Origin: Clostridia bacterium
GTDB taxonomy: Bacteria > Bacillota > Clostridia > Christensenellales > Aristaeellaceae
Direction of reading: 5' to 3'
Length of the DNA stretch: 16,641 bases
Assembly (NCBI GenBank): GCA_024404275.1
Contig: JAKSQG010000022.1
Coordinates: 1 to 16,641 of the forward strand
Shown here: in pieces, positions 1-13,969 of the stretch
Numbering within the stretch: the first letter of the stretch is position 1
Layout: each line of letters begins with the position of its first letter
The notes under the pieces: model-generated
The model's database searches: none
What the model saw: only the letters and a program-made list of their open reading frames with translations
Told to the model about the DNA's origin: nothing
Program-made: the position numbers and the translations under genes

Positions 1-1162
1 GCACACCCATCAAGCCCACCGCGCCGCAGATAAAGGCCAGCTGCAGCACGATCTTGCCGCGTCCAAAGCCGCGTACATCGTTGAGGTCCAGCTTGTGCAG
101 GTGCAGATACACCACGCCCGCCGCCATGAACAGGATCAGCTTGAACAGCGAATGGTTGATCATGTAAAGCAGCGCGCCGCGGGCTGCCAGGGCATTTTCC
201 TCGCCCAGCAGGCAGCTCATGGCGATGCCGGTCAGGATGAAGCCGATCTGGCTCATCGAGGAGCATGCCAGCGTGCGCTTGAGGTTGACCGAGAAGACCG
301 CCAGCACAGCGCCGCCCAGCATGGTCACCATGGCCAGCATCAGCAGCAGGTTGCCCCAATCCGCGCTCTCACGGAAGATGTTGGCGGATACGGCAATAAC
401 GCCGAACACGCCCGTCTTGGTCAGAATACCGGAAAGCAGCGCCGAAGCCGGGGCGGGAGCCACCGGGTGCGCCTTGGGCAGCCAGATGTGCAGCGGGAAC
501 ATGCCCGCCTTGGCGCCAAAGCCCAGCAGAATGCAGATGCACGCCGCAAAGATGGTGCCCTTATCGGCGCATTCCTCGGCCGCCTCGTACAGCTCGGCAA
601 TGACCAGCGTGCCCAGGGTGAATTTGAGGATCATCAGACCCACCAGCATCACCATGCCGCCGATGACAGCCACCGCCAGATAGGTCTCCGCGGCACGCAT
701 GGCCCCCGCGTTCTCATCATGTGCCACCCACGTGTAGGAGGTGAAGGACATGATCTCAAAGAAAATGAAGGTGGTGTACAGGTCCGCCGAGAGGAACACG
801 CCCAGCGTGGCGCCCAGCGTCATCAGGTAGAAGAAGTAATAACGGTTGCGGTTGTGATAGTGATGGGCAAAGTATTGCTTCGACAGCATCGCCGTGCCCA
901 GCCACATCACGCCCGCCACGGTGGTGTACACCGCACGGAAGCCATCCAGCACAAAGTTCAGACCAAAGCCGCAGAAGCCGCCGATGGTCAGCGAAATGGC
1001 CGCGCCGTTGATGGTGGATACCAGCAGCACCAACACCAGTGCCAGCACAGCGGCGCAGGTGCCGATCACAAACAGGTCACGGACAGGCTTGTTTTTGCGG
1101 CCGATGAGGTAGGAAACAAGGGCCGCCAGCATGGGGCCGAAAACCAGAATCGCAAGACTCAT
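1..1162 (-). CDS. Antiporter-like membrane subunit, paralogue 4 (NuoL/MrpA/MrpD/HyfB proton-conducting transporter family); 3' end cut off by the window edge
   Basis: Absent from the ORF track because it has no stop codon inside the window. ATG at 1162..1160 follows AGGAGGG (reverse complement of 1169..1175) with a 6-nt spacer. The frame stays open for 387 codons to the window edge. My translation starts MSLAILVFGPMLAALVSYLIGRKNKP. It contains FFEIMSFTSY, GFGAKAGMFPLHIWLPKAHPVAPAPASALLSGILTKTG and NHSLFKLILFMAAG, which are hallmarks of this family. It begins 13 nt after the stop of the upstream paralogue. Confidence 0.85.
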   Translation of the reverse strand, partial: MSLAILVFGPMLAALVSYLIGRKNKPVRDLFVIGTCAAVLALVLVLLVSTINGAAISLTIGGFCGFGLNFVLDGFRAVYTTVAGVMWLGTAMLSKQYFAHHYHNRNRYYFFYLMTLGATLGVFLSADLYTTFIFFEIMSFTSYTWVAHDENAGAMRAAETYLAVAVIGGMVMLVGLMILKFTLGTLVIAELYEAAEECADKGTIFAACICILLGFGAKAGMFPLHIWLPKAHPVAPAPASALLSGILTKTGVFGVIAVSANIFRESADWGNLLLMLAMVTMLGGAVLAVFSVNLKRTLACSSMSQIGFILTGIAMSCLLGEENALAARGALLYMINHSLFKLILFMAAGVVYLHLHKLDLNDVRGFGRGKIVLQLAFICGAVGLMGV

Positions 1163-1175
1163 GGACGTCCCTCCT

Positions 1176-2639
1176 TTACACCACGCCGGCAGTCAGCGTT
1201 TCAAGCACGCCGACCACCTGACTGGAAAACAGGCCGAAAAGCACAATGACCGCCGCCAGCACCGCCAGCGTCACCTTCATCTGCCAGCCGGGATCGCAGT
1301 TTTTGCCCGCCTCGACAACGCCCGAGGGCTCCAGCGGACGGAAGCACATGTAGAAGGCCGGTCCCATCAGGTAGACCGCCGTCAGAATGGCGGAAATGAG
1401 CAGCGCCGCCAGACCGATAAGACCCACCGCGCCGCAGGAGGCTGCCGCGGTACCGATCATCACCTTGCTGACAAAGCCGGGCAGCAGGGGCGTACCCATC
1501 AGGCCAAGCGCCGCCAGCACATACGCCGCGCAGGTGAAGGGCATCACCTTGCCCAGACCGCGCAGCTGCTCGATCTGCGTGCGGCCGGTATCCACCAGCA
1601 CCGCACCCGCGCAGTAGAACAGCGAAATCTTGATCACCGCGTGGAAGACCATGTGGGTCAATCCCGCGGTCAGACCCTGCACCGTCATCAGGCTGGCCGC
1701 CATGATGATATAGGACAGGTTGGACACCGTTGAATACGCCAGACGGCGCTTGAAGTGATGCTCCTTGACGGCCATCGAAGAGCCGTACACAATGGTCAGC
1801 GACGCCAGCACCACAGCGATCACCTGCGCAGGCGTGCCCAGCAAAAGCGAAGCGCCGATGCTGAAATACGTCATGCGGATGATGGCGAACACGCCCGACT
1901 TGACCACCGCCACCGCGTGCAGCAGGGCGGTCACGGGCGTCGGAGCCACGGAAGCGCTCGGCAGCCACGCGTGCAGCGGGAACACCGCCGCCTTGACGCC
2001 AAAGCCCAGGAACATGCACAGATAGCCCGCCTGCAGCAGCAGCGGATGCTCCGCGGCAAAAGCCGCGCCCATCACGCCGCCGGGGACAAAATCGGTGGTA
2101 CCGGCAAAGCCCAGCACGATCATGATGCCGGCAAAGGCCAGCGCCGCACCGAAGAAGGAATACAGCATGTACTGCCGTCCGGCGTGCAGCGACTCCTCCT
2201 CGGAGCCGTGCATGACCAGCGGCATGGTGCACAGCGTCAGGCACTCATAGAACACATACATCGTGATCAGGTTCGCCGCCGTGCTGATGCCCAGCGTCAC
2301 ACCGTAGGTGATGGTGTACAGGGCCAGAAAATGGTTCTCGCCGCCCTCATGCTTCATGTATTCAAAGGCATACAGCGAAGCCAAAGGCCAGAGGAAGATC
2401 ACAATGGCGGTAAACACCGTGCCCACGCCGTCGATGGCAAAGCGAAGGGCGATCTTATCCGTCAGCTGCAGCAGCACCGCGCCCGCCGTTTCGGGATGAA
2501 ACAGGCACCAGGCGCCCAGCAGCGAGGTCGCGATCACCGCCGCCTCCACAAACAGGGAGCGCGCGCGGGACGACTTCGGCTGCCAGCCCAGCAGGATCAG
2601 CCCCGCCGCGATGGGCAGTAGAATGGTGATTAAAAGCAT
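1176..2639 (-). CDS. Antiporter-like membrane subunit, paralogue 3 (MrpD/NuoM/NuoL family, 487 aa)
   Basis: Intact 487-aa ORF that is hydrophobic throughout. Motifs: YVFYECLTLCTMPLV (TM5 Glu), GFGVKAAVFPLHAWLPSASVAPTPVTALLHAVAVVKSG and HAVIKISLFYCAG. GGAG lies 6 nt upstream of the ATG at 2639. Stop codon is TAA. Confidence 0.9.
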   Translation of the reverse strand: MLLITILLPIAAGLILLGWQPKSSRARSLFVEAAVIATSLLGAWCLFHPETAGAVLLQLTDKIALRFAIDGVGTVFTAIVIFLWPLASLYAFEYMKHEGGENHFLALYTITYGVTLGISTAANLITMYVFYECLTLCTMPLVMHGSEEESLHAGRQYMLYSFFGAALAFAGIMIVLGFAGTTDFVPGGVMGAAFAAEHPLLLQAGYLCMFLGFGVKAAVFPLHAWLPSASVAPTPVTALLHAVAVVKSGVFAIIRMTYFSIGASLLLGTPAQVIAVVLASLTIVYGSSMAVKEHHFKRRLAYSTVSNLSYIIMAASLMTVQGLTAGLTHMVFHAVIKISLFYCAGAVLVDTGRTQIEQLRGLGKVMPFTCAAYVLAALGLMGTPLLPGFVSKVMIGTAAASCGAVGLIGLAALLISAILTAVYLMGPAFYMCFRPLEPSGVVEAGKNCDPGWQMKVTLAVLAAVIVLFGLFSSQVVGVLETLTAGVV

Positions 2640-2649
2640 CTTTTACTCC

Positions 2650-4119
2650 TTACAGCAGCGCCGCGGCAGCCTGAGTGGCAGCGTTCATCAGCGGCTGGGC
2701 AAAAATACCCGTCAGCACCACACCCGCGGCCAGCAGGCACAGCGGCACCAGCATTTTGAGGCCGGGTTCCTTCTTTTCCAGGGTGCTGTAATCAAAGTCG
2801 CTGCCCGGGAAGAAGCCGTGAATGGTGACCGGCAGCAGATAGGCCGCCGTCAGCAGGGCGGAGATGATCAGCACGACAGGGCCGACAATGGACAGGGCGC
2901 CCATGCCGTCCGCGAGGGAGCCGGTGGCCAGCAGCCACTTGCTGACAAAGCCCATGGTGGGCGGAATGCCGATCAGACCCAGAGAAGCAATGGTCCAGCA
3001 CCAGATGACGATGGGCATCTGCTTGCCGATGGCGCGCAGGTCACGCACATAGGTCTTGCCGGTCTGATGGATGATGGCGCCGGCGCACAGGAACAGCGTG
3101 TTCTTGATGACCGAGTGACCCACCACATGCAGCAGCGCGCCGCAGAAGGCGTCCGCCGTCAGGCAGGAAAGGCCAAACAGCACGTAGCTCACCTGGGACA
3201 CGGTCGAATACGCCAGACGCTTTTTCATCAGCGGCTCGCAGTAAGCCAGCATGGAGCCCATGAACACCGTGAACAGCGTCAGGCACATGAAGGTCGTCTG
3301 CACCCACGTGCCGCGCAGGGCGGCCGCGCCGATGAGGAAGTAAATGATGCGGATGATGGCCAGCACGCCGGCTTTGGTGATGACACCGGAAAGCACAGCG
3401 GAAGCGGGCGCCGGGGCGACCGGGTGAGCCGTCGGCAGCCAGCCGTGCATGGGGAACATACCGGCCTTGGTGCCAAAGCCCAGAATGACCAGGAAAGTGA
3501 TGATCAGCACCAGCGAGGAGGGCGTGCCGTTTACCACGCCGCCCGCCACAAAGTTGACGGTGCCCAGCTCATTCTGGAACACAAAGATGCCCAGCAGACC
3601 CAGCATGGCGCCGAAGATGGAGTAGATCAGGTACTTGCTGCCCGCAGCGACCGCCTGAGGCGTACGCTCGTGCACCACCATGGGCACGGAGAGCAATGTC
3701 ATCAGCTCATAGAACACATACAGCGTGATCATGGAGCCGGCGCAGCACTGACCGATGAGGGCGGACAGCACCGTCATATAGAACATCTGATACAGCCTTT
3801 CGCGGGCGGGATCGTCATGCTCCATATACTCAAGGGCAAACACGCTGCCCACCAGCCACATGGCGCTCATCAGCACCGCAAACAGGCAGCCCACGGTATC
3901 CACCTTGAAGAAAACCGCCAGAGTGGGCGTCAGGTTGAGCAGCACCAGTTCGGTGCCGCAGCCAAAGCACATGCCAATGGTCAGGGCCAGCTCAACGCCC
4001 AGCGCGGCGCAGTTGCACAGACCGCGCAGACGGCGGTCTTCCCTCAGGGCCGGCAGCAGATAGATGGCCAGTCCGGAAAGCGCAGGCCAGAATACCGCAA
4101 GGATCACCAACAGATTCAT
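2650..4119 (-). CDS. Antiporter-like membrane subunit, paralogue 2 (MrpD/HyfB/MbhH-like, 489 aa)
   Basis: Intact 489-aa polytopic ORF. Motifs: YVFYELMTLLSVPMV, GFGTKAGMFPMHGWLPTAHPVAPAPASAVLSGVITKAG and HSVIKNTLFLCAG. AAAGGAG RBS lies upstream of the ATG at 4119. Stop codon is TAA. Confidence 0.9.
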   Translation of the reverse strand: MNLLVILAVFWPALSGLAIYLLPALREDRRLRGLCNCAALGVELALTIGMCFGCGTELVLLNLTPTLAVFFKVDTVGCLFAVLMSAMWLVGSVFALEYMEHDDPARERLYQMFYMTVLSALIGQCCAGSMITLYVFYELMTLLSVPMVVHERTPQAVAAGSKYLIYSIFGAMLGLLGIFVFQNELGTVNFVAGGVVNGTPSSLVLIITFLVILGFGTKAGMFPMHGWLPTAHPVAPAPASAVLSGVITKAGVLAIIRIIYFLIGAAALRGTWVQTTFMCLTLFTVFMGSMLAYCEPLMKKRLAYSTVSQVSYVLFGLSCLTADAFCGALLHVVGHSVIKNTLFLCAGAIIHQTGKTYVRDLRAIGKQMPIVIWCWTIASLGLIGIPPTMGFVSKWLLATGSLADGMGALSIVGPVVLIISALLTAAYLLPVTIHGFFPGSDFDYSTLEKKEPGLKMLVPLCLLAAGVVLTGIFAQPLMNAATQAAAALL

Positions 4120-4153
4120 ACTCGTTTCTCCTTTATGTCTAACTCATTGAAGG

Positions 4154-5644
4154 TTACACGATCGCCTGAAGCGCCGTCTGCAGAATGGGCAGCAGCGTTT
4201 GAGACATCAGGCCGAAGACCACATTGACCGCAAGCAGCACCGCCAGCGCCGCGGTAGTCAGCCGGCTGCCCTTGACACGCTGTTCCTTCATGCCCTCGCG
4301 GGGGCTGAAGAAGGAAGAAGCCGTGCCGAGGAAGTAAGCGGCATTGAGCAGTGTCGACACCACCATGGCCGCCAGCGTCAGCGCAAGCCGCCAGCCGCCG
4401 CAGGCAATGGCCGCCTCCGCCATGGTCACCTTGGTGATAAAGACCGACAGCAGCGGCACACCCACCAGGTTGGCACCGCCTACCGCGAAACAGACCGCCG
4501 CCAGCGGCGAGCGGTAGAACACGCCGCGCAGGTCCCTTCGCTGATGCGTGCCGCCCGAAGCCTCGTCCAGCACGCTGCCGGACAGGAACAGCAGGGATTT
4601 GGTCATGGAGTGCGCCAGCAGGTGCCACAGCGCCGCCAGCATGCCCAGCTCGTTGCCCAGACCCAGCGCCATGTAGATGTAGCCGATCTGAGCGATGGAA
4701 GAGTAGGCCGTCATCATACGCGTCGTGCGGGAACGTACCGCCTTGACCGAGCCCATGATCATGCCCGCGCAGCCCATCACCAGAATGACGTTCAGAATGC
4801 CCGTTTGTCTGACCAGCTCAAAGCCGATGACACGGGTATAGATCTTGATAAGAAGGAAAATATAGCTCTTGCTGATCACGCTGGACAAAAGTGCCGAAGC
4901 CGTGGGCAGCGCATTGGGATAGGCACCGGGCAGCCACTTTTCAAAGGGATACAGGCCGCTCTTCATGCCAAGACCCAGGGTGATGAGCAGCAGCGCCATC
5001 AGCAGCGGCACACGGTACTGACCATTCAGGTCCAGCGTCGCCAGCGTTTCACGCAGCGGCACCATGAGCAATTGCCCCGTGATGATGTACAGCAGCACCA
5101 CGCCCAGCAAGAACATCGAAGAACCGATCAGGTTCATGATCAGGTAGCGCGCGCCGCCCGCCAGGCTGCGGCCGTTCTGACGGGACATCGTCAATCCCGC
5201 CGCCGCCAGCGTGTTGATCTCAATAAAAACATAGGCGGTAAACAGGTCGTTGGTATACACCAGCGCCAGCATGGCCAACGTTGCCAGATCGCACAGGATG
5301 CAGAAAAGGGCGGATTTGCTCTTTTCCACGCCCACCGTGCTGCGCTTCATGCCGGCCAGCACCGCCAGCAGGATGACGGTCAGCAGCACCTGCGCCGCCA
5401 GCGCCTCGGCCACGCCCACGCGGATCTCATTGCCCCACGGAGCGGCAAAATGACCCATGCGGAAGGCAAAGCTTTCACCCGTGCGCAGCACATCGGCCAG
5501 CGTAAAGGCGTTCAGCACCCAGTCCGCGCCCAGAATGAACACCGTCATCATGCGCGCTTTTTTGCCGCTCAGCACAGAGGATATGACCGTGCAGATGAGC
5601 GTCAGCAAAATGCAGAAGAAGGGAAAATTCTGTACAAACCGCAT
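4154..5644 (-). CDS. mrpD: Mrp antiporter subunit D-like protein, paralogue 1 (divergent, 496 aa), in the MrpD/MbhH position directly after subunit C
   Basis: Intact 496-aa polytopic ORF. The N-terminal HFAAPWGNEIRVGVAEAL resembles the MrpD/MbhH 'GgW..PfGI..v.D' region. Motifs: YVFIEINTLAAAGL, GLGMKSGLYPFEKWLPGAYPNALPTASALLSSVISKSY (degenerate core motif) and HSMTKSLLFLSGS. The ATG at 5644 overlaps the upstream TGA by 1 nt (TGATG) and is preceded by GGAGAGGAGG. Confidence 0.85.
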   Translation of the reverse strand: MRFVQNFPFFCILLTLICTVISSVLSGKKARMMTVFILGADWVLNAFTLADVLRTGESFAFRMGHFAAPWGNEIRVGVAEALAAQVLLTVILLAVLAGMKRSTVGVEKSKSALFCILCDLATLAMLALVYTNDLFTAYVFIEINTLAAAGLTMSRQNGRSLAGGARYLIMNLIGSSMFLLGVVLLYIITGQLLMVPLRETLATLDLNGQYRVPLLMALLLITLGLGMKSGLYPFEKWLPGAYPNALPTASALLSSVISKSYIFLLIKIYTRVIGFELVRQTGILNVILVMGCAGMIMGSVKAVRSRTTRMMTAYSSIAQIGYIYMALGLGNELGMLAALWHLLAHSMTKSLLFLSGSVLDEASGGTHQRRDLRGVFYRSPLAAVCFAVGGANLVGVPLLSVFITKVTMAEAAIACGGWRLALTLAAMVVSTLLNAAYFLGTASSFFSPREGMKEQRVKGSRLTTAALAVLLAVNVVFGLMSQTLLPILQTALQAIV

Positions 5645-6024
5645 CAGACTTCCTCCTCTCCGGCCAGACGGATGATCTCATCGATATCCATCGTGTGATA
5701 ACGGGCGTACAGGCGCACCGCCAGTGCCAGCGACAGCGCGCTGACCGATACCGATACCACAATGCCCGTCAGCACCAGTCCCGCGGGAATGGGGTTGATA
5801 TAGGCTTCCATCGCCTGCACACCGTCCGCCACGATGGGGGCGGCACGGCCGGTGATGTAGCCCTGACAGGCCAGAAACAGGTAGGCTGCCGAATCCATGA
5901 TGTCCATGCCGATGATCTTTTTGAACAGATTGCGGGAGAACAGCAGCATGGCAAAGCCAATGCAGATCAGCGCCACCGAGGCGACCTCGGGGAAATTGCC
6001 CGTCAGACGTTCCCAGATGCCCAT
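5644..6024 (-). CDS. mrpC: Mrp/Mnh antiporter subunit C (NuoK-like)
   Basis: Small protein with three TM helices. RNLFKKIIGMDIMDSAAYLFL and INPIPAGLVLTGIVVSVSVSALSLALAV match the MnhC/NuoK pattern. I prefer the ATG at 6024..6022, which has GGGGAG 5 nt upstream and overlaps the upstream TGA by 1 nt. The track starts one codon earlier, at the GTG at 6027. Stop codon is TGA. Confidence 0.85.
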   Translation of the reverse strand: MGIWERLTGNFPEVASVALICIGFAMLLFSRNLFKKIIGMDIMDSAAYLFLACQGYITGRAAPIVADGVQAMEAYINPIPAGLVLTGIVVSVSVSALSLALAVRLYARYHTMDIDEIIRLAGEEEV

Positions 6025-7010
6025 CACAGCTCCCCCTTTCTGAACATGGCATAGAAGCAGTACATCGTGCAGGTCACGATAAAGCCGACGCAGATGTTCA
6101 GCACCAGGATGAGGCCGCTGGACAGGATCGCGCCCGGGGTTCCCAGCGGAATGATGCTTTCAATGTGATTGGCTCCCGTGTAGAAGGAATAGCACTTGCT
6201 CAGCGCGTAGGTGAGCAGGCTCAGCAGCACCACCCGCTGATAGGTCTTGTAGGTAAAAAAGCGGCGGATATCATCAAAGCCGAAGGCAATGGCCCACAGC
6301 GTCAGGCCCGCGCCCATGATGGCGCCGCCCGAGAAGCCGCCGCCGGGCGACAGGTGACCGTTCAGAACAATGTACACGCCAAAGAGCAGGATGACCGGCA
6401 CCAGAATGCGCGCCGAGCCCTGCAGGATGCTGTCGTGCTGCGGCTCATAGAAGTTGTCGCTGTGCGGGGCACGCACGGCCTCCGCCGCCAGCGGGCTCCA
6501 TTTTTCGGATTCTTCATCCCGGCGCAGCAGCAGCAGTACCACGATCGCCGCCGTAAACAGCACCGTGCTTTCGCCCAAAGTATCAAAGGCACGGTAATCC
6601 AGGATCATACCGGTCACAATGTTGACGGCGCCGGTCTCCTGCAATCCCTGCTCGATGTACCGTCTGGAAACATCGTTGTTGATGGGGTGCTCGGCACTGC
6701 CAAAGCCGGGCAGGAAGCTGACGGTGTACAGCATCACCGCCAAAAACACTAGCATGATCAGCGTGCAAAGCAGCTTGTACAGCCCTCTTGCCTGCTTTTC
6801 GCCGCCCGAGCGGTTCCATCTGCGCAGAAGACCCTCCACGCGCTGTTCCTCGCTGTGCTCCGCCTCATAACGCCGCTGTTCCTCGGCATTGTAGGTGTAA
6901 AAGTCCTGTCCAGCCTCCGCGGTCTCCTGCTCGGACATGTGCCTGTCCAGCGGTTCCTGCGTCAGCCGGTCCAGAAGCTGCTTCAAAACCGAACGGGAAT
7001 CGTCACTCAT
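6024..7010 (-). CDS. mrpB: Fused MbhE-like (MrpA C-terminal part) and MrpB/MnhB subunit with a hydrophilic N-terminal extension
   Basis: The first half carries NIVTGMILDYRAFDTLGESTVLF, the DYRGFDTLGE-type MnhB-domain motif of the MrpA C-terminus/MbhE. The second half carries LNGHLSPGGGFSGGAIMGAG, the GH.APGGGF.GG motif of MrpB. About 85 N-terminal residues are charged and non-membrane. I prefer the ATG at 7010 (GGGGAGG 9 nt upstream). The track uses the ATG at 7019, where the SD abuts the start codon. Stop codon is TGA. Confidence 0.8.
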   Translation of the reverse strand: MSDDSRSVLKQLLDRLTQEPLDRHMSEQETAEAGQDFYTYNAEEQRRYEAEHSEEQRVEGLLRRWNRSGGEKQARGLYKLLCTLIMLVFLAVMLYTVSFLPGFGSAEHPINNDVSRRYIEQGLQETGAVNIVTGMILDYRAFDTLGESTVLFTAAIVVLLLLRRDEESEKWSPLAAEAVRAPHSDNFYEPQHDSILQGSARILVPVILLFGVYIVLNGHLSPGGGFSGGAIMGAGLTLWAIAFGFDDIRRFFTYKTYQRVVLLSLLTYALSKCYSFYTGANHIESIIPLGTPGAILSSGLILVLNICVGFIVTCTMYCFYAMFRKGEL

Positions 7011-7293
7011 GCGTTTCATCCTCCCCGTTCTTGTCTTTTTTCTTTTTCAGTTCGTTGCGCGCATCGATGGCGTGGATCTTTTTCAGCGCCAGGATCATCA
7101 GAAGGCCCGTAATGCCCGCGCCCACCGCGGCCTCGGTAATGGCCAGATCGGGCGACTCCATGAAGATCCACACAATGCTCATCAGAAGGGAAAAGCTCAT
7201 ATAAATGATGACCGATACCAGCAGGTTATCGCTCAGCGCGGTCGCCGCGGCGCAGATCACCAGCAGGATCAGCAGCAGCTGCATAAAACCCAT
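7003..7293 (-). CDS. MbhD-like / DUF4040 small membrane subunit (corresponds to part of the MrpA C-terminal domain)
   Basis: 96-aa ORF with three hydrophobic helices. It carries the motif ESPDLAITEAAVGAGITG, which is typical of DUF4040/MbhD and the MrpA C-terminal domain. The ATG at 7293 overlaps the upstream TAA by 1 nt (TAATG). Stop codon is TGA. Confidence 0.75.
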   Translation of the reverse strand: MGFMQLLLILLVICAAATALSDNLLVSVIIYMSFSLLMSIVWIFMESPDLAITEAAVGAGITGLLMILALKKIHAIDARNELKKKKDKNGEDETHE

Positions 7294-7646
7294 TATGCTT
7301 CCTCCCCCTTTTCTTCTTCATTCAGCGTTTTTGTATGCACGGTCATTTCCTTATCACGCTGCTCATTGGTCTCAATTTCCAGCCGGCACAGCAGATGGCT
7401 GCACACGGGACCGGAGACCCACATCAGCGCCACGATCAAAATCAGCTTGACCGCCGTAAAAACATCCGGCGCGCTGACGGCCAGTCCCAGCAGGCACAGG
7501 CCCACACCCAGCGTATCCCCAATGGCCGCCGCGTGCATGCGAGTAGCCGCATAGCGGAAGCGGAACACGCCCAGTACGCTCACGCCCAGGCAAAACAACC
7601 CCATCACCAGCAGCACCGCTGTCAGGGCAAAACGCACAGCTTCCAT
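7293..7646 (-). CDS. mrpG: Mrp/Mnh antiporter subunit G
   Basis: 117 aa with three TM helices. FRFRYAATRMHAAAIGDTLGVGL and the later ALMWVSGPVCSHLL fit the MnhG/PhaG pattern. Its position after subunit F also fits. The ATG overlaps the upstream TGA by 1 nt. Stop codon is TAA. Confidence 0.8.
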   Translation of the reverse strand: MEAVRFALTAVLLVMGLFCLGVSVLGVFRFRYAATRMHAAAIGDTLGVGLCLLGLAVSAPDVFTAVKLILIVALMWVSGPVCSHLLCRLEIETNEQRDKEMTVHTKTLNEEEKGEEA

Positions 7647-7963
7647 CAGCGATCTTCCTCCCCGTCTTTCTGCTGCTCCTGATGGCGGCGTTCACGGTAC
7701 AAGCCGGTATACACCTTGCACAGCAGCACCACCGCCAGAAAACTGATCATGGCGTACACCAGGCCCACATCAGCCAGATAGCCCTCGCCCAGCATCACGC
7801 ACAGCACACCCACCATGATGATGGTCAGCGTCGACAGCATGTTGATGGCAATGATGCGGTCGGATACCCGCGGTCCCAGCACACAGCGAACCAGGCAGCA
7901 CAGTGCCAGCACGCCCAGCACCACCAGAGCGCCCGTCAAAAGCAATTGAAGCGCGTCACTCAT
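7646..7963 (-). CDS. mrpF: Mrp/Mnh antiporter subunit F
   Basis: LGPRVSDRIIAINMLSTLTIIMV and YLADVGLVYAMISFLAVVLL fit the MnhF/MrpF pattern. I prefer the ATG at 7963, which forms an ATGA overlap with the subunit E stop and has AAGGAGGA 6 nt upstream. The track ORF extends to 8002. Stop codon is TGA. Confidence 0.8.
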   Translation of the reverse strand: MSDALQLLLTGALVVLGVLALCCLVRCVLGPRVSDRIIAINMLSTLTIIMVGVLCVMLGEGYLADVGLVYAMISFLAVVLLCKVYTGLYRERRHQEQQKDGEEDR

Positions 7964-8442
7964 GCCCGGTCCTCCTTCTTTTCTTCCTGTTCCATGGCGC
8001 ACAGTGCCTGCACAAAGGCGCCGTCCGTCAGACCGCTCATCATCTCTTTATCCAGGCAGTGCACCACATACTCGCCGTTTTCCAGGCTGCAGGTGATGGT
8101 GCCGGGCGTCAGCGTGATGGAATCGGCCAGTGCCACCCGCGCCGCCTCGCTCTTGAGCGGTGTGGTAAAGCGCACCAGCTGCGGCTCCACTTCGGCCCCG
8201 GGCGACAGGATGCGGCGCATCACCGCCACATTGGCGCTTACGATCTCTTTGATAAGCAGCGCCCCATAGCGGCACAGCTGCCCCAGACGGCGCAGCAGCG
8301 CCAGGTCCTTCTTCGGCCGCCAGCCAAAGAAGGCGCACACAAATGCGTAAAGCACCGCCGCCAGCACCACACCGAAAACGCCGATCTCCGTCGTCCAGCG
8401 GCCGTTCAGCAGCACCCACAGGGCAAAAAATACAATAAACAT
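7960..8442 (-). CDS. mrpE: Mrp/Mnh antiporter subunit E; first gene of the operon
   Basis: 160 aa. The N-terminal FFALWVLLNGRWT and the later ALADSITLTPGTI are MnhE-family hallmarks. GGAGGG lies just upstream of the ATG at 8442. A consensus promoter lies about 65 to 95 nt upstream. Stop codon is TGA. Confidence 0.85.
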   Translation of the reverse strand: MFIVFFALWVLLNGRWTTEIGVFGVVLAAVLYAFVCAFFGWRPKKDLALLRRLGQLCRYGALLIKEIVSANVAVMRRILSPGAEVEPQLVRFTTPLKSEAARVALADSITLTPGTITCSLENGEYVVHCLDKEMMSGLTDGAFVQALCAMEQEEKKEDRA

Positions 8443-8676: not shown

Positions 8677-9525
8677 TCAAAAGCTGCCCAAGGACCGTTT
8701 CAATGCGGCCACCCGGCAGGCACGGGCATACGCCAGGGTCAGGTAATCGACCGGCGTCATCTGCGCATACCGGTCATTGTCATGCCGCCCGGGCTTGCTG
8801 ACGCGCTTGAGCTCAAAGGTCAGGGGACCCTCATAGCCGCATCGGTTCAGGCGGGACGCGATGTCCTGCCAGCTGCCAATGCCGTCAAAGGGCAAAAGGT
8901 GCAGGTCATCCAGCCAGGTGATCTTTCCGTCAAAATCACGGATGCCCAGATTGTCATTGAGGTGCGTGGCAATCAGGCGGTCGCCGTACAAAGCCAGCAT
9001 GTCCTTGCTGTGGTTATAACACATTTCGTGACCGGAATCCCAGCAGAAGCCCACAGCCGCGTTTCCTTTGAAGTGCGCCATCAGCGCCGCCAGATACTCC
9101 TCGCCCTCGGTGTTTTCAAAGGCGATCTTCACCCCGAGCTTTTCGGCTTCCCGCACGATCTGCTCAAAATGGTCCAGTCCCTGCGGGGTCGGGGTATGCT
9201 TTTCAAAGCCGATGAAGGTGTGCGCCACCATGATGGGCACACCGCACTCGGCGCACGCCCGCAGGCAGTCGATCTGCTCACGGATGACCTGCGGTGTTCT
9301 CTCCGTTTCCTCCCATAGGTCACAGATGTACTTGAAGGGCGCGTGGATGGATTGAAAAAGCAGGCCTTCTTCCTTTCCCACACGGCAAAGCGTCTGCGCT
9401 TCCTCCCGGCTGCCCCAGCCATAGAAGAACCCCTCGAAGCCGATGGACGCAAGGGTTCGCACCTGCTCGACATAATCCAATGAAAAATCCCTGGTAAGGC
9501 CAAGGCACAACCGTATCTTTTCCAT
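8677..9525 (-). CDS. Sugar phosphate isomerase/epimerase family protein (xylose isomerase-like TIM barrel)
   Basis: 282-aa ORF. The pattern SIHAPF...VPIMVAHTF...KIAFENTEGE...FCWDSGHE...ATHLNDN...TFELK is typical of the AP-endonuclease-2/xylose-isomerase-like TIM-barrel family, with its metal-ligand E/D/H/E spacing. GGGAGGGG lies 5 nt upstream of the ATG at 9525. Stop codon is TGA. Confidence 0.8.
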   Translation of the reverse strand: MEKIRLCLGLTRDFSLDYVEQVRTLASIGFEGFFYGWGSREEAQTLCRVGKEEGLLFQSIHAPFKYICDLWEETERTPQVIREQIDCLRACAECGVPIMVAHTFIGFEKHTPTPQGLDHFEQIVREAEKLGVKIAFENTEGEEYLAALMAHFKGNAAVGFCWDSGHEMCYNHSKDMLALYGDRLIATHLNDNLGIRDFDGKITWLDDLHLLPFDGIGSWQDIASRLNRCGYEGPLTFELKRVSKPGRHDNDRYAQMTPVDYLTLAYARACRVAALKRSLGSF

Positions 9526-9658: not shown

Positions 9659-10813
9659 TTACTTCTTTTGCCACACGGTCTTGCCGCCCACGATGGTCGC
9701 CGTGACCTCCATGGCCTCATCCAGCAGCACCAGGTCGGCATCAAAGCCTTGTTTGATCTTTCCGCGGCAGTCTCCCATCCGCATGGCTTCGGCGGGGTTG
9801 GCCGTCAGGATCGGCAGCACCTTTTCCAGCGGCTCGCCGGTAAAGCGCAGCAGGTTGCGCAGCCCCTGCGCCGCCGTCAGGGTCGAACCGGCCCGCACAT
9901 CCGTTTCGGTCAGGCGTGCGTCGCCGTCCTTCACGGTCACATCATTGACGCCCAGCTTGTACTTGCCGTCCGGCAGACCGGCAGCCATGATGCTGTCCGT
10001 CACCGCCATCACGCGGTCATAGCCCTTGCACTTGAGCAGCATGCGTACCGTGCCGGGATGCAGATGCCGTCCGTCACAGATGGCCTCGCACCAGCAATCG
10101 CTTTCCAGCGCCGCGCCCATGATGGCCGGTTCATGCTGATGAAAGAGGCGCATCGCGTTGAAGGTATGCGTCACGCAGCGGGCACCCGCCTCAATCGCCG
10201 CCCGGGCGGTATCATAGTCGGCGCCGCTGTGACCGATGGATATAACGATCTCCTGCGACAATTCGCGGATCATGTCGATCACGCCGGGCACCTCGGGCGA
10301 CACCGTCATATAGCGGATCACACCCGGATACTTTTGCAGCCAGGAGCGCACCAGCGCCGCGTCGCCCTCACGAAGCAGATATTCGGGCATGGCGCCCTTG
10401 TACTGTGACGAAAGGAAAGGGCCTTCCAGATGCACGCCCATCAGGCGCGCGCCAAGGCCGTTATCACCCATGACCGTCTGCGCGTCCCGCAGACACTGCT
10501 CGGTCACCTCGGGCGTATCCGTCAGCACGCTGACATGAAAGGAGGTGACGCCCTGCGCGGCAAAGAACGCCGCCAGACGGCGCAGTCCCTCCACGCCGGC
10601 GGCATTAACGTCCACGTGGACGGCGCCGTGCGTATGGACATCGATCAGACCGGGAATGACCCGGCTTCCGGCGGCTTCAAGGACGGCGGTATTCTCCGGC
10701 ACGGCCTCAAAATGCCCGATCGCTTCAATGCGTCCATCCCGGCACAGCACGTCTGTCTGTTCCACCGCGCCGTCTGTGTACACAAGACCGCCGCGAATCA
10801 ACAGCTGCTCCAT
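9659..10813 (-). CDS. nagA: N-acetylglucosamine-6-phosphate deacetylase
   Basis: Amidohydrolase-fold NagA hallmarks: GLIDVHTHG, GVHLEGPFLS, SIGHS, THTFNAM and AVTDS. I prefer the ATG at 10813 (MEQLLIRGG...), with GAGGAGG 8 nt upstream. That SD overlaps the TGA of the upstream gene. The track ORF runs 20 codons further, to 10873. Stop codon is TAA. Confidence 0.9.
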   Translation of the reverse strand: MEQLLIRGGLVYTDGAVEQTDVLCRDGRIEAIGHFEAVPENTAVLEAAGSRVIPGLIDVHTHGAVHVDVNAAGVEGLRRLAAFFAAQGVTSFHVSVLTDTPEVTEQCLRDAQTVMGDNGLGARLMGVHLEGPFLSSQYKGAMPEYLLREGDAALVRSWLQKYPGVIRYMTVSPEVPGVIDMIRELSQEIVISIGHSGADYDTARAAIEAGARCVTHTFNAMRLFHQHEPAIMGAALESDCWCEAICDGRHLHPGTVRMLLKCKGYDRVMAVTDSIMAAGLPDGKYKLGVNDVTVKDGDARLTETDVRAGSTLTAAQGLRNLLRFTGEPLEKVLPILTANPAEAMRMGDCRGKIKQGFDADLVLLDEAMEVTATIVGGKTVWQKK

Positions 10814-11677: not shown

Positions 11678-12346
11678 TCAAAACAGTCTTTCCACGCCAA
11701 GCTCCCGGATCATGTCCACGATCTCCCTGGTGCGGCCGCACCCGAACTTTTTGAGCAGACCGCTGATCTGGGTCTTGACGGTCACCACTTCCACACACCG
11801 CGCCTCGGCGATCTCACGGATCTTGTAGCCGTCCAACAGAAAGCGCACCAGCGCCCTTTCCGCCGGCGTCAGCTGCGCGACGTTGTTGATAAAAAACAGC
11901 AGGCTTTGCTCAGAGCGGCGAAGGCGGCTGTATTCCCGCATCACCGTGTTCTGGATGCGGGCATCCATCATGGGCTTGCCGTTATAAGCCGCTCGGATGT
12001 GCTGCAGCAGCTCCTGCTCGGGACAGCCCTTGACGATGTAATCCACCGCCCCGGCGCCCATGGCTTCAATGATCAGCTCATCCGTCTCATGCGCCGTCAG
12101 AAAAATGATCTTCGCCTGCGGGCAATCATCCAGAATATGCTCGGCGGCTTCCACGCCGGCGTTCAGATGCTCCATCTCGATATCCATCAAAAGGATATCA
12201 AAATCGACCGATGCCGCCAGACGCTCCGCCTCGGCGCCGCAGGAAGCCAGACCGACGACCTGCATATCGGCTTCCGCCGAAAGCGTTTCCGCCAGGTCCT
12301 CCCGGAGAAGATCGAAATCCTCCGCGATGATCACTCGAATCGGCAT
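11678..12346 (-). CDS. Two-component response regulator, NarL/LuxR family (REC domain plus LuxR-type HTH)
   Basis: REC domain: IRVIIAEDFDLLRE ... DILLMDIEM ... IIFLTAHE ... GAVDYIVKG. C-terminal LuxR HTH: LTPAERALVRFLLDGYKIREIAEARCVEVVTVKTQISGLLKKFG. The ATG at 12346 has GAGGAGGG 5 nt upstream. The track ORF starts 5 codons earlier. Stop codon is TGA. Confidence 0.9.
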   Translation of the reverse strand: MPIRVIIAEDFDLLREDLAETLSAEADMQVVGLASCGAEAERLAASVDFDILLMDIEMEHLNAGVEAAEHILDDCPQAKIIFLTAHETDELIIEAMGAGAVDYIVKGCPEQELLQHIRAAYNGKPMMDARIQNTVMREYSRLRRSEQSLLFFINNVAQLTPAERALVRFLLDGYKIREIAEARCVEVVTVKTQISGLLKKFGCGRTREIVDMIRELGVERLF

Positions 12347-12385
12347 ACGTTCCCTCCTCACCGTCTTATTTCAAGGCGAAGCATA

Positions 12386-13891
12386 TCATTTGGATGTCGG
12401 ATTGTATTTGGGCAGCTGAATGGTAAAGCACGTGCCGTGCCCCAGCTCTGTCTCCACCCGCAAAAGGCCAAGGTGACTTTTTACGATCTGACGCACGTAG
12501 TACAACCCCATGCCCCAGTTGAAGTTGGCGTTCTTGCTGGACCAGAAGGGCTCAAAAATATGCCTCCGCTGCGCCTTGGACATGCCGTAGCCGTGATCGC
12601 GGATCTCGATGACCGTCCACTGCCTCTCCTGCCGGGCGGTCACCAGCACGGGGGCCTCCGTCCGTTTGGCCATCACCTGCGCCTCCCAGCCGTTGAGCAT
12701 CAGGTTGTAGATTGCCTCGGTAAAATGGCTGTGATCGCACAGCACGGTAATGTCCTGCGGGATATCGATCTGCACCGCGGCATCGGGGTATTTTTTCCGT
12801 ATTCTTTCCGCCGCCAGGGCGCAGGGTTCCGCCAAAGCCTACGGCACCAGCGAGATGGAATTGGTGCGGATGCCGCGGTACAATTCCTCCATACGGCCAA
12901 TCATGTAATCATTGTTCTGGGCCAGCTGACGGTGGTAGAGCCGCAGCGTTTCCTTATCCGGCTCGTCTGCCTCCAATTCGGCACCGATTCTTTTGAGCAG
13001 CACACGGTTGGCCAGCAGCTGGTTTTTGACCGAGTGCACAAACACGCTGGCACCCTTGCTTGTAGCGTCAAACTTGCGGCGGATGGCTTTTTCTTCCTGA
13101 CCCTCCAGAATGCTGTCGCGGGCATATCGCAGCGTGCAGACGATGCCGGAGATGGCCGACACCATAAACAGCACAAAAATGAACGCGTACATGACCGGGT
13201 TGAGGGCGGGGTTGAGGTACCACAAGCCCTGCTGCGCGCCCATGTATTCGTTTCGGTAAAACAGATAGACCTGTGCCGGGTCCTGCGGACAATAGACCGC
13301 ATAGAGCGCGATCAGACCAATGACCATCAGCAGGCGGCCGCCAAACTGCCGCTTGTAGAACCGCATGGTGGTATCGTGAAGCTCCAAAGCCATCAGCAGC
13401 ACCGCCAGCAGCAGATACAGCACGATCCAGGCGAGCGAAGCATTGACCAGCAGCATGATCATGCCGCTGCTCAAGCCCACCAGCCCTTCAAACACCGTGG
13501 GATAATACACCACCATGGACAGGACGGGCAGCACTGCCGCCAGGGCATACAGCCATGGGCGGCGTTTTACATTGGCGCGCTGGCTGTAATAGAGCGCCAG
13601 CCACAGGGCCAGCATGGGAAACAGATACCGTCCCAATGCCATGATATAACCCATGCGCCCCAAAGTAAACAGCAAATACTGAAACCAGGTGCGAACCTGC
13701 CGCACGCCAAACAGCATACGCAGGATCTATTGGCCGAAACCGCCCTTTTTGGAGATATAGACCAGCATCATGAACCAGAATTCCGCCAGGCTCAGATCCA
13801 TGCTGACGATCAGCGCGGTCTCCCGGTCCCGGCGGGCAAAGAGCAATATCGCCGCCGAAATTACCAGCAAAACAATAATTCCAACCGCCAT
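12386..13891 (-). pseudogene. Membrane sensor histidine kinase: one 501-codon reading frame interrupted by two in-frame TAG codons (a nonsense-mutated pseudogene, or a CDS whose TAGs are read through or recoded)
   Basis: Segment 1 (13891..13730) has 54 codons: MAVGIIVLLVISAAILLFARRDRETALIVSMDLSLAEFWFMMLVYISKKGGFGQ. It is too short to appear in the track. TAG at 13729..13727. Segment 2 (13726..12842) has 295 codons: multiple TM helices, then the H-box-like FVHSVKNQLLANR. TAG at 12841..12839. Segment 3 (12838..12389) has 150 codons: an HATPase_c domain with N-box IYNLMLNGWEA, G1 IRDHGYGM and G2 NWGMGL. All three segments are in the same frame. The ATG at 13891 is the first start after an in-frame TGA (13915..13913), with GGAG 9 nt upstream. 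Final stop is TGA at 12386. Confidence 0.8.
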
Positions 13892-13969
13892 TCGGTCCGT
13901 CTCCGCATTCTTTCATAAATTGCGTAAGCGCGCCCGCGGGGCAGCCGACTCCCTCCTGCGGGAATCAAC

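Follow-up and report, generated by a model that had tools for sequence, protein, structure and literature searches.

The accepted stop-codon reassignments of bacteria all involve UGA (PMC8629427; PMC13462651). UAG serves as a general sense codon in eukaryotes and in phages that use genetic code 15 (PMC9523058), and certain archaea read all UAG codons as pyrrolysine (Pyl; code 34), a code that its authors note to be absent from bacteria (Kivenson et al., bioRxiv 10.1101/2024.09.30.615893). Our literature searches returned no report of bacterial UAG reassignment except that to Pyl in a few enzymes. In this study we analyzed a metagenome-assembled stretch of 16,641 nucleotides from an uncultured member of the Clostridia (Aristaeellaceae; assembly GCA_024404275.1, contig JAKSQG010000022.1), hereafter referred to as the window, in which a gene for a sensor histidine kinase runs in a single frame across two internal TAG codons. 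Our data suggest that UAG is translated as an amino acid in this lineage, and we put the probability of this reading at roughly 0.75 to 0.8.

Several described systems resemble what we observed at this locus and its relatives. In the archaea with code 34, as here, in-frame TAGs are thinly spread over ordinary genes that are otherwise intact, few if any genes sampled end in TAG, standard (code 11) gene calling misses the change and splits the genes, and the distribution is sporadic and phylogenetically young. However, code 34 needs pylTSBCD and methylamine metabolism and is archaeal, whereas here the organism is a bacterium and the sense codons that replace TAG in sister strains encode Gln or Glu, not Lys. 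The gut phages with code 15 (crAss-like and Lak phages) read UAG as a standard polar residue, as may be the case here, and likewise show interchange of CAG and TAG and a gut or rumen origin; phages that recode TAG to Gln usually do so by means of a suppressor tRNA(CUA) (PMC9523058, PMC10607447). Unlike the phage case, which concerns mostly late phage genes in standard-code hosts, the TAGs described below belong to housekeeping and metabolic genes of the chromosome (Mnh antiporter, NagA, ABC transporters, two-component system).

Codes 4 (UGA as Trp) and 25 (UGA as Gly) are lineage-wide stop-to-sense changes in bacteria, like the one considered here, and UGA reassignment has been recognized by in-frame stops, lost terminator use, a cognate tRNA and release-factor loss (PMC8629427, PMC13462651). 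They involve UGA and release factor 2, mostly in low-GC or reduced genomes, whereas the present case involves UAG and release factor 1 (RF1) at 59 to 60% GC. The Escherichia coli supE/glnV44 suppressors and the RF1-deleted recoded strains also decode UAG partly, as Gln or by near-cognate tRNAs, in a context-dependent manner and with tolerance of amber mutations, but these are laboratory or engineered strains that keep TAG as a terminator of their natural genes and show no long-term TAG accumulation. Finally, adenine at position -1 enhances UAG read-through in yeast, and the 5' context is reported to modulate read-through in bacteria (PMC12233894). An A 5' of UAG is favorable in known read-through contexts (CAA-UAG-CAA of tobacco mosaic virus; yeast adenines at -1 and -2) (PMC12233894), and A is common at this position here, but those cases are eukaryotic or viral, gene-specific, low-level C-terminal extensions and not internal codons of many bacterial genes.

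A sensor kinase gene with two in-frame TAG codons

The window has a GC content of 59.8%, and all 18 of its genes lie on the minus strand. An original prediction, made from the sequence alone, had placed two internal TAGs within one uninterrupted kinase frame. Translation of 13891..12386 bore this out: the minus strand reads as 54 codons, TAG, 295 codons, TAG, 150 codons and TGA, with no frameshift. The kinase and its partner gene are laid out as follows.

12386..13891, minus strand: sensor histidine kinase gene, 501 codons with both TAGs read, ending in TGA
13727..13729, minus strand: in-frame TAG at codon 55 (KKGGFGQ-TAG-ILRML), preceded by the rare codon CAA (CAA TAG at 13727..13732)
12839..12841, minus strand: in-frame TAG at codon 351 (SISLVP-TAG-ALAEP), preceded by CCG (CCG TAG at 12839..12844)
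11678..12346, minus strand: NarL/LuxR-type response regulator of 222 amino acids, 40 nt downstream of the kinase (Response_reg, E=2e-22)

The gene starts with an ATG at 13891, about 9 nt downstream of a GGAG, in agreement with the predicted start site. Coding scores were strongly positive for all three pieces, among them the N-terminal 54-codon piece, which had been described as clearly coding. The encoded protein has a multi-helix membrane domain at its N terminus, followed by the H-box FVHSVKNQL (residues 283-291) and a C-terminal HATPase_c domain, which was matched by Pfam at residues 386-495 (E=6e-17). No Pfam HisKA model scored above threshold in the kinase; the NCBIfam kinase models gave a single stretch of alignment (265-494) that spans the second TAG. 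In the H-box (FVHSVKNQLLAN), H286, S287, K289, N290 and Q291 are invariant across 24 aligned sequences, and the ATPase-box residues N396/N400, D432-G434-G436 and G460-G462 also are invariant. The description of the kinase domains as intact stands. The protein thus combines the His box, the GHKL ATPase boxes and the adjacent response regulator that define a two-component sensor histidine kinase.

Further comparison was made with 23 full-length homologues (approximately 500 amino acids, 40-61% identity), all of which align with the kinase from end to end and carry ordinary residues at both TAG positions, with Glu at codon 351 in 14 of the 23. Such an alignment had been proposed as a means of finding the residue that corresponds to each TAG. 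It proved gap-free across both sites, but the columns are variable and point to no single residue, Glu being the commonest. In an AlphaFold model (pLDDT 77.6), residue 55 lies in a loop (49-56) that follows an invariant KKGG motif, and residue 351 lies in a non-helical linker (344-353) at the boundary between the second dimerization helix and the ATPase domain; residues 281-306 and 313-343 form long helices. The alignment and the model together support the earlier suggestion that both TAGs occupy tolerant linker positions.

The order of kinase and response regulator is common to all strains and to relatives that are 40-60% identical, and the regulator is conserved, with 0 nonsynonymous versus 9-13 synonymous differences between close strains. 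Within the operon, an NMT1-type ABC transporter lies upstream of the kinase and NagB, NagA and a TIM-barrel enzyme lie downstream, a context that suggests an amino-sugar-related signal. If UAG is translated, the kinase is most likely a working two-component sensor that acts with its adjacent regulator, not a relic. No RNA family, and hence no known recoding element, was detected when the window was scanned against Rfam. Antisense to both the kinase and the regulator runs an open frame of 670 codons (11906..13918, plus strand); its coding potential is negative, which marks it as a GC-rich shadow open reading frame and not a gene.

The same arrangement could be viewed as a split kinase, in which TAG terminates and the pieces are re-initiated separately and assemble into a working enzyme. 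The pieces would be of 54, 292 and 149 amino acids or, in other strains, of 54 and 443 or of 350 and 149. An ATG is found 4 codons past the first TAG and a TTG 2 codons past the second, and isolated dimerization and ATPase domains of a kinase (EnvZ) can complement each other in trans in vitro. However, no Shine-Dalgarno sequence precedes either restart codon, and three different split architectures would all need to work.

Recurrence, polymorphism and selection at the kinase TAGs

The kinase TAGs are real, old and polymorphic. They recur, position for position, in at least 15 contigs that come from different runs and three pipelines (NCBI metagenome-assembled genomes [MAGs], ENA and Logan), with an ENA assembly and two NCBI MAGs among the sources, and both are present in 10 Logan contigs drawn from separate SRA and ENA runs. 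The 54-amino-acid N-terminal fragment is encoded identically in ten runs, followed by the 292-amino-acid fragment and, where the contig reaches, the 149-amino-acid fragment. Clustering at 90% groups 24 such fragments, taken from Logan, ENA and NCBI, with members of 54, 149, 292 and 350 amino acids. Errors of assembly or sequencing, which the original prediction had listed as one possible explanation, or of base modification could create false TAGs, and the window is a metagenome-assembled contig of a kind that can carry consensus errors. This is scarcely credible given that the same TAGs recur across independent runs and assemblers. Moreover, the TAG sites of the lineage differ between strains yet are consistent within a strain, and they share no sequence motif beyond an A at position -1.

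The lineage was sampled as the window's species (NCBI MAG GCA_024500545.1) and a sister species approximately 93% identical to it (GCA_045599485.1 / SGB_3710). The kinase locus of the latter's GTDB representative, GCA_045599485.1, is designated L011, and its kinase DNA is 93% identical to that of the window. Three kinase alleles were distinguished at codons 55 and 351.

TAG at 55 and TAG at 351: the window and L001-L010
GAA (Glu) at 55 and TAG at 351: L012, L022, L024 and L025
TAG at 55 and TCC (Ser) at 351: L011

Codon 351 also is TAG in L027 and L028. An allele with sense codons at both positions, which had been named as what sister strains would carry if the gene were a plain pseudogene, was not found among approximately 15 billion proteins. 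The best full-length match among 5.8 billion clusters is 61% identical, and all proteins above 90% identity are TAG-bounded fragments. A scan of GTDB genomes likewise returned the sister species and then relatives at 60% or less, with nothing between 60% and 93% identity, and a scan of JGI metagenomes with the kinase returned only relatives at 43-49% and no new strains.

The sister codons GAA and TCC are each two positions away from TAG, and so the kinase TAGs are not fresh single-step mutations. The rare CAA before codon 55 is retained even in the GAA alleles, which suggests that TAG is the ancestral state at this codon. We also noted that the alleles are mosaic at codons 7-21 and 352-424: L012 and L022 share variants of L011 at both ends of the gene and are window-like in the middle. 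This indicates that homologous recombination moves TAG and sense states between lineages.

Comparison of the whole kinase between the window and L011 (alleles 7% apart in DNA) revealed 86 synonymous changes, 14 nonsynonymous changes and 0 indels, corresponding to a dN/dS of 0.043; against the same locus, flanking genes gave 0.00-0.13. Among the four full-length alleles with both TAGs, 32 synonymous and 8 nonsynonymous codons segregate, and in the ATPase domain, which follows both TAGs, the numbers are 12 and 2. Overall, the kinase dN/dS was 0.04-0.10, and the 9 full-length alleles show 0 indels over their 1506 nt. Under neutrality approximately 76% of changes would be nonsynonymous (binomial p 1e-7 to 1e-39 for the pairs tested). 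The low nonsynonymous share in all three segments argues that all three are translated and needed.

These figures bear on whether the kinase is a plain pseudogene, that is, a dispensable gene hit by two nonsense mutations, with the TAGs of other genes described below being null alleles of accessory sugar-use genes. Gut bacteria often carry loss-of-function alleles of regulators and of genes for carbohydrate use. Against this, alleles separated by a dS of up to 0.29 share the TAGs with a dN/dS of 0.04 and no indels, the part after both TAGs is as constrained as the rest, no intact allele was found, and GAA and TCC would each take two steps to reach TAG. Two recent nonsense mutations, another of the explanations first offered, do not fit this pattern. 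Of the marks of a decaying pseudogene (relaxed selection, indels, mixed stops and intact alleles in relatives), none was seen for the kinase. Purifying selection on all pieces is, on the other hand, equally compatible with a split kinase.

In-frame and terminal TAG codons in the lineage

The original prediction had seen no further in-frame TAG in the window, and indeed the 5343 codons of its 18 genes hold just the two in the kinase. The argument it drew from this against a genome-wide effect did not survive, as ten more in-frame TAGs were found in nine other genes of sister strains and species. The in-frame density is approximately 1 per 2000-3000 codons, at which a 16.6-kb window is expected to hold only about 2. 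The survey covered approximately 110 kb from the window's species and the sister species in two chromosomal regions, including two contigs of GCA_045599485.1 (47.7 kb). In total, 12 in-frame TAG sites were found in 10 genes, and coding scores or a Pfam domain continue across each. The ten sites outside the kinase are listed here with the codon found in the sister strain or species.

NagA, codon 316: TAG in L011 (sister species; GCA TAG), gene otherwise intact; window 9866..9868, minus strand, CAG (Gln316), preceded by GCG
TIM-barrel sugar-phosphate isomerase/epimerase, codon 255: GCA TAG in L022; window 8761..8763, minus strand, CAG (Gln255), preceded by GCG
The same TIM-barrel gene, codon 115: TAG in L036 (99.5% identical to the window); window 9181..9183, minus strand, CAG (Gln115)
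Aldo-keto reductase, codon 105: TAG in at least five contigs, L035 and L038 among them; sister codon GAG
TPR/DUF6273 protein, codon 474: TAG in L034, spanned by one Pfam match (420-589, E=7e-24); no sister codon
GH65 phosphorylase 2, codon 426: TAG in L037; sister codon CAG
GH65 phosphorylase 1, codon 317: TAG in L038; sister codon GAG
MnhA, codon 265: TAG in L039 (sister species), followed by 470 coding codons; window 368..370, minus strand, GAG (Glu265), in a gene whose start lies at 1162 and which extends beyond the window edge
ABC exporter, codon 404: TAG in L039; no sister codon
Secreted protein, codon 161 (160 amino acids, TAG, 100 amino acids): TAG in L037, within a low-GC (36%) insertion; no sister codon

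Gene calls made with the standard code show many split genes in this material, and every split but one is due to an in-frame TAG. On the two contigs of GCA_045599485.1, 7 of 43 genes carry one. Where two aldo-keto reductase alleles both have the TAG, 26 synonymous versus 5 nonsynonymous differences lie downstream of it. No in-frame TGA and no frameshift was seen in the genes surveyed across the approximately 110 kb. A single in-frame TAA was found, in a LacI-type regulator (L022:13795-14805, plus strand) after residue 29, inside the helix-turn-helix (HTH) region, where the Pfam LacI match (7-52) spans it. It probably is a true null allele, the alternative being an ochre-reading tRNA. Twelve of the 13 in-frame stops therefore are TAG, compared with 0.57-0.63 expected from codon usage and the mutation spectrum (p ~0.01-0.02).

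None of approximately 46 distinct genes sampled in the lineage ends in TAG, and all true ends are TGA or TAA; each TAG that standard-code gene calling takes for a stop here belongs to the in-frame sites already described. The orthologous locus was also read in three related genera (Pseudoflavonifractor, L014; an Oscillospiraceae MAG, L018; a sheep-rumen MAG, L019): 5 of 55 genes there end in TAG with noncoding sequence after each, and in-frame TAGs number 0. The ratio of in-frame to terminal TAG is thus 12:0 in the lineage versus 0:5 in the related genera (Fisher p=1.6e-4). The kinase orthologue of the sheep-rumen MAG (L019:9917-11647; 60% identical) ends in TAG-NNN-TAG, which shows that TAG is a terminator in the nearest sampled genus. 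The count in the window alone (0 of 17 TAG terminators) was set aside as an argument, since the relatives use TAG for just ~9% of genes.

Inspection of the bases around the TAG sites revealed a strong 5' bias. Immediately before TAG, A stands at 8 of the 12 sites, compared with 6.0% of codons that end in A (p=7e-8), and C at none of them, compared with 40% expected; the context CAA-TAG occurs twice. No bias was found in the base after TAG at the 12 sites (A4, G5, C1, T2). At four sites the preceding codon has been changed synonymously to an A-ending one relative to the sister strain: GCG CAG to GCA TAG in NagA and at codon 255 of the TIM-barrel gene, CAG GAG to CAA TAG in the aldo-keto reductase, and GCC GAG to GCA TAG in GH65 phosphorylase 1. 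Since different starting dinucleotides converge on A/TAG, selection rather than a mutational signature is indicated. The pattern suggests context-dependent decoding and/or avoidance of CTAG.

The survey adds to both sides of the pseudogene explanation. TAG is the likeliest nonsense product in this codon usage (0.57-0.63), a true in-frame TAA is present in the LacI-type gene of L022, and several of the additional TAGs are singletons. However, 7 of 43 genes in one genome would have been lost to TAG alone, without frameshifts, including the MnhA subunit of a multi-subunit antiporter, and compensatory synonymous changes to A before TAG at four sites would be unexpected in dead genes. We consider this explanation very unlikely. 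A split kinase may still apply to this gene taken by itself but appears very unlikely overall: re-initiation fails where a TAG falls within one domain, as in NagA, the TIM barrel, GH65, MnhA, the ABC ATPase and DUF6273, and it leaves the missing TAG terminators and the A bias unexplained.

Sister codons were available at nine sites, the two in the kinase included, and are CAG at four, GAG at three, GAA at one and TCC at one. Gln or Glu is therefore the sister residue at 8 of 9 sites, compared with 45.5% expected (p ~0.01), and Lys, Tyr and Trp are not represented. As guides to the inserted residue, family alignments and PDB homologues gave no single amino acid, all TAG sites lying in variable columns: the commonest residue is Glu in either kinase column, Arg at codon 255 and Phe or Glu at codon 115 of the TIM-barrel gene, and NagA has Q, E and V. 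The sister pattern favors a Gln- or Glu-type tRNA over pyrrolysine.

Insertion of Pyl at all UAG codons by a lineage that has pylTSBCD would be a bacterial counterpart of archaeal code 34, and a sub-case of UAG translation that differs in the inserted residue. Some Clostridia carry pyl genes. No Lys codon (AAG) is found among the nine sister codons, though AAG is as common here as GAG and CAG, and no methylamine methyltransferase or pyl gene was seen within the approximately 110 kb. Genome-wide UAG-to-Pyl decoding with many in-frame TAGs and few TAG ends is documented in archaea, but code 34 has not been observed in bacteria and is linked to methylamine methanogenesis (bioRxiv 10.1101/2024.09.30.615893). 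On balance, we regard Pyl as an unlikely identity for the inserted residue.

Proposed translation of UAG and its implications

Suppression, read-through or reassignment of TAG was one of three options in the original prediction, which had chosen among none of them, and it is the one that the data support. In this reading, UAG would not be an efficient stop in the lineage; ribosomes would insert an amino acid and continue. The kinase would then be a single functional 501-residue sensor paired with the regulator at 11678..12346, and its TAGs would be ordinary rare sense codons at tolerant linker positions. Decoding may rely on a tRNA that reads UAG (anticodon CUA), or it may be near-cognate and follow from a weakened or lost RF1. 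Because the sister codons are predominantly CAG and GAG, the inserted residue is expected to be polar and Gln- or Glu-like. The bias at position -1 suggests that decoding still competes with termination, or did so until recently. The preference for A before TAG, often reached by synonymous change, is consistent with an "ambiguous intermediate" or incompletely fixed reassignment and not with a context-free code.

A number of observations weigh against translation of UAG. Several of the ten extra TAGs were seen in one contig only, and the survey extends over approximately 110 kb in two regions of the chromosome rather than over a genome. The in-frame TAA of the LacI-type gene in L022 shows that ordinary null alleles occur. 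TAG is the commonest expected nonsense product here (~60%), so its excess over TAA and TGA is modest, and the missing TAG terminators taken alone are only weakly significant (p ~0.01-0.05), since even the relatives end few of their genes in TAG (9%). The TAG sites lie in variable alignment columns with mixed sister residues (Q at four, E at four, S at one). In addition, no tRNA or tmRNA gene was detected when the window and 10 loci were scanned for them.

With TAG gone from gene ends, approximately one in-frame TAG per 2000-3000 codons and A selected upstream, the reassignment would appear to be at an early, context-dependent stage. That this is the first bacterial lineage with chromosome-wide use of UAG as a Gln/Glu sense codon at such a stage has, in our estimation from these sequences, a slightly better than even chance of being correct.

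If UAG is translated, the lineage has a new bacterial genetic code that involves UAG rather than UGA, and RF1-dependent termination can be dispensed with in a gut or rumen bacterium of ordinary metabolism and high GC content. Sites polymorphic for TAG and sense codons, together with the A before TAG, would then offer a rare view of reassignment in progress, a natural and datable example of the ambiguous intermediate in a GC-rich, nonreduced bacterial genome. There would be practical consequences as well. Current MAG annotation would be wrong for this lineage, with about one gene in six split into "hypothetical" fragments, and code-prediction tools that rely on coding density would miss such genomes. 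The lineage also might yield a natural UAG-decoding tRNA/synthetase pair for genetic code expansion.

Other features of the surveyed loci were noted. In the window's clade, OppF and the aldo-keto reductase are separated by two ChrA chromate-transporter half-genes (L035:8250-9415 and L038:579-1744); the sister species (L034:10978-11115) is without them and has the TPR/DUF6273 gene after the reductase instead. The secreted-protein gene with the in-frame TAG lies, together with an HTH gene, on a 1.3-kb insertion (L037:15600-16950) of 35-39% GC in a chromosome of 59% GC. This insertion is flanked by a 98-amino-acid duplicate fragment of the adjacent 2-hydroxyacid dehydrogenase and is absent from L038, and so it probably was acquired by recent horizontal insertion. 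Lastly, the window (1..8442, minus strand) and L039 carry a large operon for an Mrp/Mnh-type cation:proton antiporter with three tandem MnhD-like subunits and a 735-amino-acid MnhA.

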